DNA from: Escherichia coli
GTDB taxonomy: Bacteria > Pseudomonadota > Gammaproteobacteria > Enterobacterales > Enterobacteriaceae
Direction: 5' to 3' (one strand)
Assembly: GCF_003334355.1 (NCBI RefSeq)
Contig: NZ_QOWP01000077.1
Length of the DNA: 2,235 nt
Under the pieces are notes generated by a model that searched no databases, was not told the origin of the DNA, and was given only the letters and a program-made list of their open reading frames with translations. Positions 1 through 2,235 of the stretch are shown one piece after another (the stretch's first letter is position 1; the number at the start of each line of letters is the position of its first letter). Made by a program: the position numbers and the translations under genes.

Positions 1-159
1 AAACCAGACGGGTTAACGGCAGCAAAGAACCTTGCAGAGGCGTTCGAGCATTATAACGAATGGCATCCGCATAGTGCACTGGGTTATCGCTCGCCACGGG
101 AATATCTACGGCAGCGGGCCAGTAATGGGTTAAGTGATAACAGGTGTCTGGAAATATAG
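1..159 (+). CDS. insD: IS2 transposase OrfB (InsD), C-terminal 52 codons; 5'-partial at window edge
   Basis: Open frame 1 from position 1 to TAG at 157..159; the translation carries the [18 protein letters not shown] motif. Confidence 0.8.
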
Positions 160-170
160 GGGGAAATCCA
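130..170 (+). repeat. IS2 right terminal inverted repeat (inner boundary approximate)
   Basis: Terminal sequence ends in GGGGGAAATCCA at 170, as recalled for the IS2 right end; it overlaps the OrfB stop codon. Confidence 0.65.
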
Positions 171-244
171 ATGAACACCTCCCTCTCGAGATTTTTAAAC
201 AAAGCACATTGAAAAATAAATCTCTCTGGGATTGAATTATTCAT
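171..244 (-). pseudogene. 5' stub (24 codons, MNNSIPERFIFQCALFKNLEREVF) of a small gene, probably ymgC, interrupted by IS2; the frame reads on into IS2 with no stop before the window edge
   Basis: Minus-strand ATG at 244..242 preceded by a good Shine-Dalgarno (GAGG, plus 250..253, 5-nt spacer). The position, downstream of ariR on the same strand, is where ymgC lies in the K-12 ycgZ-ymgABC operon. I cannot confirm the YmgC N-terminus from memory. Confidence 0.4.
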
Positions 245-356: not shown

Positions 357-623
357 TTACATATCATCAGCTGTGTATCGCAACACGATTTCCAGTGTTT
401 TTCTAATCACATCAGCTTTGAGAATATCACTTGTTGTTTCCAGGGAGTGTATCAGACTTAAGATAATATTTTTATTATTAACATTATCGCCTGAAAGCAT
501 TAAATTGGTGACAGCCTGCCCTAACACTGCTGACTCTTCTTCTAACAAATTACCCGAACTGCGAAAGTAACTTGCTAACGCTTTATCAGTTATTGCATTA
601 TGAATTGTAGTATCTTCAAGCAT
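357..623 (-). CDS. ariR: AriR/YmgB, small regulator of acid resistance and biofilm (88 aa)
   Basis: Complete 88-aa ORF with Shine-Dalgarno GAGAGG (plus 629..634) 5 nt upstream of the ATG. Length, sequence and operon position match the recalled E. coli AriR. Shares the L-G-x-x-V-T...N...K...L-E pattern with the ycgZ product. Confidence 0.9.
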
Positions 624-651
624 GGTAACCTCTCATCTTACTTATGAAATT

Positions 652-924
652 TTAATGTATTCTGTTTATTTTCTTACCATTGAACATACTTTTATTGTCA
701 GCTGTCGCTGTTCTTCGGTTTGGCCCTCCTGAATCACTATTGCTAAAATCACGAATTATGCTGTCAATTAAATCGCGTCGGAAAGCATCTTCCTCAGCCG
801 ATTTCATTACGAGTAATTGCTTAATAAGAGTCTGCAATGAAAAATTTATCTTCATGCGCAGTATCTGGAGCACCGCCTGGCCAGTAATTTCATATTTTAT
901 ACGTTCATTATCAGATGTCTTCAT
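652..924 (-). CDS. ymgA: YmgA, small connector protein of the ycgZ-ymgAB operon (90 aa)
   Basis: Complete 90-aa ORF lying 42 bp downstream of ycgZ and 28 bp upstream of ariR on the same strand. Contains a GQAV motif shared with AriR. Own Shine-Dalgarno is weak (GAAG); a 4-codon overlapping upstream ORF is described in findings. Confidence 0.88.
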   Translation of the reverse strand: MKTSDNERIKYEITGQAVLQILRMKINFSLQTLIKQLLVMKSAEEDAFRRDLIDSIIRDFSNSDSGGPNRRTATADNKSMFNGKKINRIH

Positions 925-966
925 AACGACTTCATAGCTAACCTGTTAAATAATCAGGCTGTTGCA

Positions 967-1203
967 TTATTCAAAAAGCAACCCAATTAGTGCATTATAA
1001 TGTTTCTGTTCCTCTTCCCCTGTCGCTTGTTCCAGTCGGCAAAGAAGTTTGGCACAAAGCGACTTTCGACTCAGATTACGTCCATCTTTCAAAATCTCAG
1101 TCACAATTTCCCCGAGAGTTTCCTGCTGAGTAGGCAAGTTAGCTTTTGCAAAGTAACGAGTGATTGCTCCCGCAGAATCTGAAGTCACTGAATTTTGATG
1201 CAT
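967..1203 (-). CDS. ycgZ: YcgZ, first gene of the ycgZ-ymgA-ariR operon (78 aa)
   Basis: Complete 78-aa ORF with Shine-Dalgarno AGAGG (plus 1211..1215) 7 nt upstream of the ATG. Clear similarity to AriR (YF...LGEIVTEILKDGRNLSRKSLCAKLLCRLE against [29 protein letters not shown]). Divergent from bluF as in K-12. Confidence 0.9.
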   Translation of the reverse strand: MHQNSVTSDSAGAITRYFAKANLPTQQETLGEIVTEILKDGRNLSRKSLCAKLLCRLEQATGEEEQKHYNALIGLLFE

Positions 1204-1259
1204 GCTACGCCTCTGTTAAAAATGTTAATCAATGTGAAGTGAGGTAACAATAGCAAACT

Positions 1260-1278
1260 TGTACGAAATATGTGTACA
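1260..1278. promoter_or_regulatory. Inverted repeat TGTAC-N9-GTACA, candidate repressor operator
   Basis: TGTAC at 1260..1264 and GTACA at 1274..1278 are reverse complements separated by 9 bp, about 57 bp upstream of the ycgZ ATG. Confidence 0.25.
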
Positions 1279-1297
1279 GAATGATAAATTAATTTTT

Positions 1298-1316
1298 TGC
1301 AATTAGTGCTAATGCA
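1298..1316. promoter_or_regulatory. Imperfect inverted repeat TGCAATTAG-TG-CTAATGCA, candidate operator
   Basis: Left arm TGCAATTAG (1298..1306) and right arm CTAATGCA (1309..1316) are reverse complements apart from a single-base indel. Confidence 0.25.
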
Positions 1317-1516
1317 TATAAAACAATGTGTTATGATAAAAAATATTGCATCATTTAACTGACAATCTATACAAGATTTTTCGCCAACTAGTGTTCAACT
1401 TTTTCCATTTTTTATCAATGTAAAGAAACGGTTATGTTTTGGTATTAAAAGAAAGACACAAGAAGATATGTCTGTTACCGTCTTACTCTCGCCTCACCCA
1501 TTACCCTGGATTGTTA

Positions 1517-2116
1517 ATGCTTACCACCCTTATTTATCGTAGCCATATACGTGACGACGAACCTGTCAAAAAAATCGAAGAAATGGTTTCGATAGCAAAT
1601 CGCAGGAACATGCAGTCTGACGTAACAGGGATCTTACTGTTTAATGGTTCTCATTTTTTCCAGCTTCTGGAAGGTCCGGAAGAACAGGTTAAAATGATAT
1701 ATCGGGCTATATGCCAGGATCCACGGCACTATAATATTGTTGAGCTGCTGTGCGATTACGCGCCTGCTCGCCGTTTTGGCAAAGCGGGAATGGAATTATT
1801 TGATTTGCGCCTGCACGAGCGAGATGACGTTTTACAGGCCGTATTCGACAAAGGCACATCAAAATTTCAGCTAACTTATGATGACAGAGCGCTACAATTT
1901 TTTCGTACTTTTGTCCTTGCAACCGAACAATCAACCTATTTCGAGATCCCTGCCGAAGACTCCTGGCTTTTTATCGCTGACGGATCTGATAAAGAACTTG
2001 ATTCCTGTGCCCTTTCACCAACTATAAACGACCACTTTGCCTTTCATCCTATTGTCGATCCCTTATCGCGGCGGATAATCGCTTTTGAAGCCATTGTGCA
2101 AAAAAATGAAGATTGA
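1517..2116 (+). CDS. bluF: BluF/YcgF blue-light antirepressor, N-terminal 199 aa only (intact BLUF domain, EAL domain cut off just after its signature); truncated by IS3 insertion, likely pseudogene
   Basis: MLTTLIYRSHIRDDEP...GILLFNGSHFFQLLEGPEEQV is a BLUF photoreceptor signature. FHPIVDPLSRRIIAFEAIVQ corresponds to the start of an EAL domain, but the ORF stops 5 codons later at the TGA (2114..2116) that is the first triplet of an IS3-type terminal repeat. Recalled full-length BluF is about 403 aa. Start placed at 1517 rather than the track's 1439. Confidence 0.85.
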   Translation: MLTTLIYRSHIRDDEPVKKIEEMVSIANRRNMQSDVTGILLFNGSHFFQLLEGPEEQVKMIYRAICQDPRHYNIVELLCDYAPARRFGKAGMELFDLRLHERDDVLQAVFDKGTSKFQLTYDDRALQFFRTFVLATEQSTYFEIPAEDSWLFIADGSDKELDSCALSPTINDHFAFHPIVDPLSRRIIAFEAIVQKNED

Positions 2117-2152
2117 TCCTACCCACGTAATATGGACACAGGCCTAAGCGAG
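2114..2152. repeat. IS3-type terminal inverted repeat (about 39 bp from recall; inner boundary approximate)
   Basis: Starts with the TGATCC typical of IS3-family ends (5'-TG...), abutting bluF codon 199. Confidence 0.65.
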
Positions 2153-2235
2153 GTTCTGGTTTTCAAATTGTTCCGGACTGAGGCCGCCACACCAACTGTG
2201 CCGCCGCCACCGATTGTAATCACATTCGATATAAT
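2144..2235 (-). CDS. IS3-family transposase OrfB, C-terminal fragment; 5'-partial at window edge
   Basis: Minus-strand frame open from the window edge to TAG (plus 2146..2144); the translation ends ...YNRWRRHSWCGGLSPEQFENQNLA. Confidence 0.7.
   Translation of the reverse strand, partial: YIECDYNRWRRHSWCGGLSPEQFENQNLA

Follow-up and report, generated by a model that had tools for sequence, protein, structure and literature searches.

Three short genes stand in tandem in AT-rich DNA of Escherichia coli, and the question that this locus raises is whether all three descend from a single ancestral gene and, if so, how old and of what origin the resulting cluster is. The window analysed here, meaning the whole stretch of 2,235 nucleotides, carries three open reading frames, ariR, ymgA and ycgZ, which ORF calling placed on the minus strand at the coordinates that a first-pass annotation of the same DNA had given them, and identical DNA bears the same three names in RefSeq (Table 1). 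It contains the ycgZ-ymgA-ariR portion of the ycgZ-ymgABC operon on a chromosome of the E. coli/Shigella type, and for its YmgA protein there is a Shigella flexneri entry with 100% identity. These genes form a well-studied biofilm-regulator operon of E. coli and Shigella that is already known. The operon itself, its control by BluR/BluF, MarA and RpoS (Tschowri 2009/2012; Kettles 2019), its outputs through Rcs and SpoT and the suspicion that it is of foreign origin have all been published, and the window matches its K-12 counterpart in genes, order, spacing and the divergent bluF promoter region, whereas, unlike in K-12, ymgC is cut by IS2 and bluF is truncated by IS3. Everything about the locus is ordinary except the place of YmgA in its family, which is weakly documented.

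Table 1. Features of the analysed window, with positions counted from its first nucleotide.
Feature	Positions	Strand	Description and basis
IS2 3' end: end of transposase gene and terminal repeat	1..170	+	GC 50.6%; annotation in matching genomes
ymgC remnant, first 25 codons	170..244	-	Fourth gene of the operon, interrupted by IS2
ariR (ymgB)	357..623	-	88 aa; third in the triad; three-helix YmgB/AriR fold; ORF and RefSeq
ymgA	652..924	-	90 aa; middle of the triad; divergent member, supported as sharing the fold; ORF and RefSeq
ycgZ	967..1203	-	78 aa; leads the operon; paralog of the YmgB/AriR family; ORF and NCBIfam/Pfam/hhalign
bluF/ycgZ divergent control region	1204..1516		31% GC; ycgZ promoter, bluF start and BluR operator lie within
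Predicted MarA site (marbox) GCACTAATTGCAAAA	1295..1309	-	On the ycgZ strand; one mismatch to GCAHWWWWTGYYAAA
bluF (ycgF) 5' part, codons 1-199	1517..2113	+	BLUF domain and linker retained; by translation
IS3 terminal part, inserted in bluF	2114..2235		GC 50.4%; identity to the ends of IS3 copies

YcgZ and AriR are clearly homologous in sequence. Their Smith-Waterman score of 61 (z = 7.9) was equalled by none of 5000 shuffles, and the Pfam family YmgB (PF10798) matches AriR over the whole model (E = 9.7e-26) and YcgZ over model positions 3-39 (E = 1.2e-5), its precomputed mark being carried by all of the AriR and YcgZ homologs retrieved. Comparison of the two families with hhalign gives a probability of 94.9% (E = 4.6e-8). 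The NCBIfam equivalog NF040640 (YcgZ_fam, cutoff 80 bits) scores YcgZ at 124.6 bits and AriR at only 27.3 bits (E = 3.2e-6), so that AriR is related to this family but is not an equivalog. BLASTP missed the similarity between YcgZ and AriR and returned nothing useful, which reflects a lack of sensitivity since Smith-Waterman alignment with shuffling recovers the pair. Residues 25-88 of AriR are identical to the crystallised sequence of PDB entry 2OXL, chain A, and a sequence search of the PDB with YcgZ produced chance-level matches only. The alignment of these two products over their central region, as claimed in the first-pass annotation, is therefore borne out by the shuffling test, the common Pfam family and the profile comparison. 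The motif that was written down for it is right in substance but wrong in its literal form, which matches nothing, being one x short before the final L-E; ending in L-x-x-x-L-E, it is found at residues 34-62 of AriR and 30-58 of YcgZ.

The same annotation had joined YmgA to the group through a GQAV element shared with AriR, and this element is indeed present, at position 15 of YmgA and position 35 of AriR. Because the pairwise signal of YmgA is weak, with Smith-Waterman shuffle fractions of 0.023 against AriR and 0.008 against YcgZ, the GQAV match is insufficient on its own and the case for a third tandem paralog has to be carried by profiles and a structure model. YmgA has no match in Pfam even at E <= 10, none in NCBIfam, NF040640 included, and none to YcgZ by BLASTP. 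A word-indexed search gave E. coli/Shigella variants only (at least 76% identity), too shallow a profile, and with sequences from E. coli alone hhalign compares YmgA with the families at an E-value of about 0.03 and a probability under 2%. A family of 85 representatives was instead assembled from synteny-derived orthologs, those at the corresponding position in Citrobacter and in another, third genus, and from an exhaustive profile search, and a 66-sequence profile was used. Aligned with a combined AriR+YcgZ profile, it reaches a probability of 90.6% (E = 1.3e-6) and a score of 34.6, compared with a mean of 9.6 (sd 1.8, maximum 16.4) for 200 column shuffles and 9.4 for the reversed profile; these two controls took the place of a circular-shift control, which was dropped as uninformative because local alignment re-finds the same segment. 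Against the single families the hhalign probabilities are only moderate (YcgZ 53%, AriR 19%), and the alignment register is identical across every comparison. The YmgA-family HMM scores AriR at 15.8 bits and YcgZ at 15.1 bits. Among Pfam families, only PF10798 finds a match in more than two members of the YmgA family (6/66 at E <= 0.1, 1/66 at E <= 1e-3), and since it leaves the YmgA of the window unmatched and is rare in the family, YmgA was filed as a distant superfamily relative rather than as a Pfam member. YmgC was also considered as a fourth paralog and was rejected, because the two family HMMs give the full-length protein no more than 0.3 and -0.5 bits.

A sequence search of the PDB returned nothing for YmgA. 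Its AF2 model comprises helices at residues 2-23, 30-43 and 47-63, with a block-mean pLDDT of about 93-95 over residues 11-60, and when this model was compared with 350,542 PDB chains using Foldseek, the top match was the AriR structure 2OXL (rmsd 1.0 Å over 56 columns, TM 0.83), the second-best chain having a TM of 0.37. The Foldseek E-value for 2OXL is a modest 0.05 because the domain is short, and since AlphaFold was trained on the PDB, 2OXL and the fold match are not wholly independent. A shallow YmgA alignment led to a different AF2 model, consisting of two long helices with no PDB match. The YmgB/AriR family (PF10798, 2OXL) would thus comprise a protein that has been crystallised (AriR 25-88), one that fits the Pfam model (YcgZ) and one whose predicted structure superposes at 1.0 Å (YmgA). 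The last differs from the others in that it is without the N-terminal Y-F segment common to YcgZ and AriR, and its helical core, approximately residues 2-63, is followed by a variable tail (residues 64-90) that is predicted to be disordered and ends in a conserved ...K-x-H, the final residue being the conserved His.

Taken together, the profiles and the model support YmgA as a further member of the YmgB/AriR family, one that becomes visible only with deep profiles, and the reading that we prefer, to which we assign a probability of roughly 85%, is that a single ancestral gene was triplicated in tandem, long before the split of Escherichia and Citrobacter, and that the three resulting genes belong to one YmgB/AriR superfamily and have stayed together in order beside bluF-bluR. 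One alternative is that only ycgZ and ariR are paralogous and that the small helical gene between them, ymgA, has no kinship to either, its resemblance being convergent or due to chance. The missing Pfam and NCBIfam matches, the weak pairwise scores, the poor hhalign result with E. coli sequences alone and the ease with which short helical bundles superpose all speak for this, but the diverse profile lifts the match far above its shuffled and reversed controls, one register is retained throughout, YmgC, of like size and composition, scores close to 0 bits, 2OXL is the lone outstanding match in the PDB and six members of the YmgA family touch PF10798 directly, such that we consider this explanation improbable. 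A different alternative accepts the kinship and makes it young: the triad would have been amplified recently within one lineage, or carried into E. coli by a phage not long ago, as the nearness of prophage e14 might suggest. It draws on the low GC and GC3 of the genes, on the integration of e14 at icd about 4 kb away and the closeness of the prophage-like ycgX, on the IS elements at the flanks of the window and on the phage-associated transfer suggested by Tschowri 2012. Against it, the order YcgZ-YmgA-AriR beside bluF/bluR is constant in every complete locus read, and the ordered triad is conserved in Citrobacter and on other enterobacterial contigs. Orthologs of E. coli and Citrobacter are far more alike (about 85% identity for YcgZ, 72% for AriR and 49% for YmgA) than the paralogs are to one another (22-24%). 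Of 5426 complete E. coli genomes, 4880 (90%) have one copy of an 847-bp block at 95-100% identity, and none of 50,697 phage records matches it. It does occur in 16 plasmid records, every one of them non-mobilizable, and among those listed two are of chromosome size (4.8-4.9 Mb). A recent or phage-borne origin was rejected on this distribution and appears to us very improbable indeed. The tandem duplication proposed in the first-pass annotation accordingly stands as far as paralogy is concerned, whereas the event is ancient, being neither recent nor specific to E. coli.

The base composition of the segment is as unusual as had been claimed. Exact counts give a GC content of 35.2% for positions 171-1500, 37.9% for 357-1203 and 21.7% for 301-360, a stretch that is almost wholly intergenic and for which about 22% had been estimated, in comparison with a mean of about 50.8% for the E. 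coli genome. The individual genes have 35.6% (ariR), 37.0% (ymgA) and 42.2% (ycgZ), their spacers about 31% and the IS flanks 50-51%. Third codon positions agree, with a GC3 of 30-35% in the three genes against 55% in a fragment of the nearby icd (icd GC 51%), and the alleged position next to a prophage-prone site is correct, icd being the attachment gene of e14. That the module was acquired horizontally, an idea put forward earlier by Tschowri et al. 2012, is plausible if the event was an old one: the low GC, the H-NS sites published from genomic SELEX and the occurrence of the module in three unrelated chromosomal neighbourhoods in three genera fit acquired DNA, whereas a recent event is contradicted and no phage copy was found. 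Since most E. coli have the block in a single copy, no phage record has it, it occurs on plasmids only where these are non-mobilizable and the protein family is spread over Enterobacterales, any transfer would date far back, with another enterobacterium as its probable source. The low GC could also have nothing foreign about it, if the module descended vertically within Enterobacterales and was moved by rearrangement while its AT-richness was kept locally, either through weak selection on rarely expressed small stress genes or through a need for curved DNA responsive to H-NS or sigma-S. Consistent with this are the presence of the protein families across Enterobacterales, the near-universality of the module in E. 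coli, the lack of a mobile vehicle among the phage and plasmid records, the AT-richness of the entire icd-pdeG interval, including iraM, ycgX and ymgC as well as the triad, and a module GC that varies with the host (36-42% in E. coli, 41-47% in Citrobacter and 39-50% in L006). Yet the three genera house the module at three unrelated positions, in each of them its GC lies 5-15 points below that of the housekeeping flanks, and its distribution is patchy, the module being missing from Salmonella, Yersinia and O157 (Tschowri 2012). We regard vertical descent as less likely than not, and an old horizontal origin as plausible.

The suggestion that the DNA is targeted by H-NS is supported in part. 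Published genomic SELEX in K-12 places H-NS sites, in vitro, in the bluF/ycgZ, bluR/bluF, iraM/ycgX and ymgC/ycgG spacers, whereas neither in vivo H-NS ChIP nor hns-mutant data for the operon were found in the literature. Two sources that might have supplied them were rejected: in an ETEC ChIP table ycgZ is listed among sites with CRP-type sequences and not as an H-NS site, and in a paper on 'transposon capture' the operon appears in the reference list only. Papers on temperature shift and AZT contain expression data and no link between H-NS and the operon.

All functional claims for these small, cytoplasmic, helical proteins come from work on E. coli K-12, a different strain, much of it by overexpression (Tschowri 2012; Kettles 2019; Guiraud 2023; Duval 2017; an Rcs preprint). 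According to distances in Tschowri 2012, ycgZ transcription would start at about position 1239, 36 nt 5' of the ATG, and that of bluF at about 1487. The centre of the predicted marbox lies about 63 bp upstream of this inferred ycgZ start, which agrees with the 62 bp of the published site, a forward-oriented one (Kettles 2019); sequence matches at one mismatch are not above chance by themselves. A consensus scan for promoters and terminators was left unused because its signal did not rise above shuffled expectation. In the published scheme, BluR would repress the sigma-S-dependent ycgZ promoter and BluF, activated by blue light, would take it off, whilst MarA may activate the promoter via sigma-70. 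The products would then switch on the Rcs phosphorelay, with colanic acid going up and CsgD and curli going down, an induction that is RcsF-independent when driven by YmgB (Rcs preprint). AriR is further reported to bind SpoT and to raise ppGpp, and YcgZ to lower ompF transcription and to be degraded by Lon. In two-hybrid and co-elution experiments YcgZ, YmgA and YmgB bind one another and RcsC's histidine-kinase domain (Kettles 2019), and we infer that this hetero-association may be made through the helical interface that also holds the AriR homodimer together, as expected of diverged paralogs.

That YmgA, a protein without a Pfam or NCBIfam family, has evidence for the AriR fold is a modest addition to this picture. 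If it is true, the YcgZ-YmgA-AriR complex would be an assembly of three ancient paralogs and a starting point for modelling the contact with RcsC, and the conserved C-terminal His motif of YmgA is flagged as a target for mutagenesis. A more far-reaching joint reading, which we offer tentatively and do not think probable, is that the AriR fold has a third branch, evolving fast and founded by YmgA, which family databases have left unlinked to AriR/YcgZ, and that the three ancient paralogs form an obligate hetero-oligomer whose genes move through Enterobacterales together with bluF-bluR as one cassette, the whole triad being duplicated in one genome. The near-invariant ...K-K/L/I-H at the C-terminus of YmgA, following a disordered linker, would in this case serve as a signal for docking or for degradation, addressed to RcsC or a protease, for instance.

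The structure of AriR was reportedly described by Lee et al. in 2007 as Hha-like despite negligible sequence identity. Like the triad, Hha, YmoA and Cnu are small, all-helical regulators that work through protein partners, but the documented partners of the triad are RcsC (Kettles 2019) and SpoT (Guiraud 2023) and not H-NS. No Hha-family chain is among the top 50 Foldseek matches of the YmgA model in the PDB, and neither AriR, YmgA nor YcgZ has an Hha match in Pfam. The connectors and anti-adaptors IraM, PmrD, SafA and MzrA are likewise small and signal-induced, and bind a signalling protein to re-route a two-component or proteolysis pathway. The iraM gene even shares the AT-rich interval of the triad, but none of the four has sequence or fold kinship to it, and the triad is unusual in comparison with them in that three paralogs act as a complex (Kettles 2019).

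Both flanks of the window are insertion sequences. Positions 1..170 are annotated in matching genomes as 'IS3-like element IS2 family transposase', and 2114..2235 is 98.5-99.2% identical to the ends of copies annotated as 'IS3-like element IS3 family transposase'. IS3 cuts bluF after codon 199, with loss of the EAL domain from a product that has 403 aa at full length in RefSeq; matches to E. coli genomes end at 2113, and the bluF::IS3 junction occurs in no complete E. coli genome searched. The IS2 cut, after codon 25 of ymgC, is annotated at the same junction in E. coli PSS-12. With the EAL half of BluF gone through IS3 and ymgC interrupted by IS2, this strain has, judged from the DNA, probably lost its control of the operon by light, while the three paralogous genes are intact despite both insertions.

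The three adjacent small-protein genes ycgZ, ymgA and ariR (ymgB) described in the first-pass annotation are confirmed here, and the proposal that they descend from one ancestral gene by tandem duplication is supported. The locus is known biology and a horizontal, H-NS-associated origin had previously been proposed in print; the incremental points are the model-based assignment of YmgA to the AriR fold, a conserved C-terminal histidine motif in YmgA, a duplicated triad in one genome and the disruption of bluF and ymgC by insertion sequences (IS) in the strain of the window. The motif said to be shared by YcgZ and AriR was correct in substance but lacked one variable position before its final L-E; once corrected, it matches AriR residues 34-62 and YcgZ residues 30-58. 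BLASTP does not detect this pair. Smith-Waterman alignment gives a score of 61 (z = 7.9), which none of 5000 shuffles reached, and the NCBIfam YcgZ model matches AriR (3.2e-6). The Pfam YmgB family (PF10798) matches both AriR (9.7e-26) and YcgZ (1.2e-5) and marks every retrieved homologue of either protein, whilst profile-profile comparison of the two yields 94.9% probability (E = 4.6e-8, 58 columns). Together, these Smith-Waterman, Pfam and profile-profile results establish YcgZ and AriR as paralogues. The crystallised YmgB (PDB 2OXL) is identical to AriR residues 25-88.

YmgA can be added as a third member. The GQAV string reported for YmgA and AriR is indeed present in both, and is a weak signal alone. 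Pairwise comparison gives shuffle fractions of 0.023 (AriR) and 0.008 (YcgZ), YmgA has no match in Pfam, NCBIfam or PDB sequences, and a profile built from E. coli sequences only reaches a best E of about 0.03. Synteny yielded divergent orthologues, each encoded between the orthologues of ycgZ and ariR; YmgA is 49% identical to the Citrobacter protein and 34% to that of another enterobacterial contig. Searching 1.84 billion proteins with the resulting profile yielded 85 cluster representatives, and an alignment of 66 family members has the consensus M-x-R-S-x-x-E-x-L-x-D-E-L-I-G-E-A-V-L-x-L-L..P-I..A-L...L..M...E-x-D..R-R, followed by a variable tail and a K-x-H end. With hhalign, this family matches the YcgZ family (E = 1.4e-4, 53%), the AriR family (E = 1.3e-3, 19%) and a combined AriR and YcgZ profile (E = 1.3e-6, 90.6%), the last with a score of 34.6 against a mean of 9.6 (sd 1.8, maximum 16.4) for 200 column shuffles and 9.4 for the reversed profile. 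The family HMM gives AriR 15.8 bits, YcgZ 15.1 bits and the similarly sized negative control YmgC about 0 bits. One alignment register is constant across all YmgA comparisons, and PF10798 is the sole Pfam family with more than two matching YmgA-family members.

An AlphaFold2 model of YmgA from a deep alignment predicts helices at residues 2-23, 30-43 and 47-63 and then a disordered tail, with block-mean pLDDT of about 93-95 over residues 11-60; when the alignment was shallow, the model had two helices. Among 350,542 PDB chains, the top Foldseek hit of the deep-alignment model is 2OXL (rmsd 1.0 Å over 56 columns, TM 0.83, a structure that AlphaFold may have learned in training), followed by a hit of TM 0.37. 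The E-value for 2OXL is only 0.05 because the domain is short. We place the probability that YmgA is homologous to YcgZ and AriR at about 0.85-0.9.

In the C-terminal part of YmgA (window 652-735), the last residue is a nearly invariant histidine across the 66 aligned proteins, usually after K-K, K-L or K-I and preceded by a variable linker with predicted disorder. This motif might serve for docking or as a degradation signal. Annotation of the family in public databases is inconsistent: among AFDB50 hits, most members are called 'uncharacterized', and several go under 'YcgZ', 'YmgB/AriR', 'IraP' or 'integron gene cassette protein'.

The paralogues are identical at 10-11 of 46 residues in the common register, whereas E. 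coli and Citrobacter orthologues share about 85% (YcgZ), 72% (AriR) and 49% (YmgA), YmgA evolving fastest of the three. The order YcgZ, YmgA, AriR is constant in every complete locus read, the triad adjoins bluF-bluR in longer contigs, and members of the YmgA family occur, according to AFDB hits, in Klebsiella, Enterobacter, Cronobacter, Pantoea, Erwinia, Pectobacterium and Ewingella. These identities, the conserved order and the spread across genera indicate that duplication was ancient within Enterobacterales rather than recent in E. coli. In one enterobacterial assembly (GCA_009990205.1, loci L008/L009), two complete triads (1-865 and 3729-4603) flank bluF-bluR, one divergent from bluF and the other downstream of bluR; the duplication thus covers all three genes as a unit.

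Features of the window, with gene names from the RefSeq annotation of matching genomes.
Feature	Position	Strand	GC (%)	Remarks
IS2 end	1-170			inserted in ymgC
ymgC remnant	244..170	minus		first 25 codons; cut by IS2
ariR	357-623	minus	35.6	ORF, 88 aa
ymgA	652-924	minus	37.0	ORF, 90 aa
ycgZ	967-1203	minus	42.2	ORF, 78 aa
Marbox-like GCACTAATTGCAAAA	1309-1295	minus		ycgZ strand; one mismatch to consensus
IS3 end	2114 to 2235			cuts bluF after codon 199

Positions 1-2113 are 99.9% identical to E. coli matches (megablast, 5,426 complete E. coli genomes), and the YmgA encoded matches a Shigella flexneri entry at 100% identity, which makes a Shigella-type source likely. In annotated matching genomes, bluF follows ycgZ and is divergently transcribed. 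Both edges of the 2235-bp window are insertion sequences. An identical ymgC/IS2 junction is present in E. coli strain PSS-12; the bluF::IS3 junction was not found in any of the 5,426 genomes. Through IS3, bluF retains its BLUF domain and loses its EAL domain, which we take to be the part required for antagonising BluR. The blue-light anti-repressor of this strain is probably non-functional, and light induction has therefore probably been lost.

Exact counts bear out the reported AT-richness: GC is 21.7% at 301-360 (nearly all intergenic; estimated as about 22%) and 35.2% over 171-1500, against 50-51% in the IS flanks. It is 37.9% over 357-1203 and 31.0% in the bluF/ycgZ spacer; in the three genes, GC3 is 30-35%, and an icd fragment in a related intact locus has 51% GC and 55% GC3. 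The low-GC tract is wider than the triad, running from iraM to ymgC with part of pdeG. In the E. coli locus L002 (8649-9667 and 4355-4603), iraM has 34%, the ymgL/ymgK interval 29%, ycgX 37% and ymgC 35% GC, and the entire icd-to-pdeG interval therefore looks compositionally foreign.

Phage-associated acquisition was already proposed from the adjoining e14 and the prophage-like ycgX, the unit being absent from Salmonella, Yersinia and O157 (Tschowri et al. 2012). The bluR-bluF-ycgZ-ymgA-ariR module lies between icd/iraM and pdeG in E. coli (L001/L002), between gdhA-like and glycosidase genes in Citrobacter (L005) and between murJ and flgN in a third genus (L006). These unrelated neighbourhoods favour a foreign origin, as do a module GC 5-15 points below that of housekeeping flanks in all three genera and H-NS sites located by genomic SELEX in the bluF/ycgZ, bluR/bluF, iraM/ycgX, ymgC/ycgG and ymgF/ycgH spacers; our literature search turned up no in vivo data on H-NS at the triad operon. 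Vertical inheritance, with the module moved by rearrangement and its AT-richness maintained locally, is a possible alternative. The horizontal, H-NS-targeted origin suggested at first pass is thus partly supported. Recent import or carriage by phage is disfavoured: 4880 of 5426 complete E. coli genomes hold a single copy of the 847-bp block (95-100% identity), and none of 50,697 phage records contains it. The 16 'plasmid' records carrying it are all non-mobilizable, and at least two, among the matches listed, are chromosome-sized (4.8-4.9 Mb). The module may plausibly have been acquired long ago from another enterobacterium.

All pairwise interactions among YcgZ, YmgA and YmgB have been observed, with none for YmgC (Kettles 2019); such a hetero-complex of three paralogues would use the inherited AriR dimer interface. 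YmgB induces Rcs without requiring RcsF (Rcs preprint) and binds SpoT, raising ppGpp independently of Rcs (Guiraud 2023), whilst YcgZ, a Lon substrate, lowers ompF transcription (Duval 2017). The ycgZ-ymgABC genes are cotranscribed as one unit from a sigma-S promoter located 36 nt upstream of ycgZ, which BluR represses until BluF, activated by blue light, lifts repression (Tschowri 2012). MarA activates sigma-70-dependent ycgZ transcription via a marbox 62 bp upstream (Kettles 2019). Relative to the inferred transcription start of ycgZ, the centre of the putative marbox GCACTAATTGCAAAA lies about 63 bp upstream, and the position of this candidate agrees with the published MarA site.
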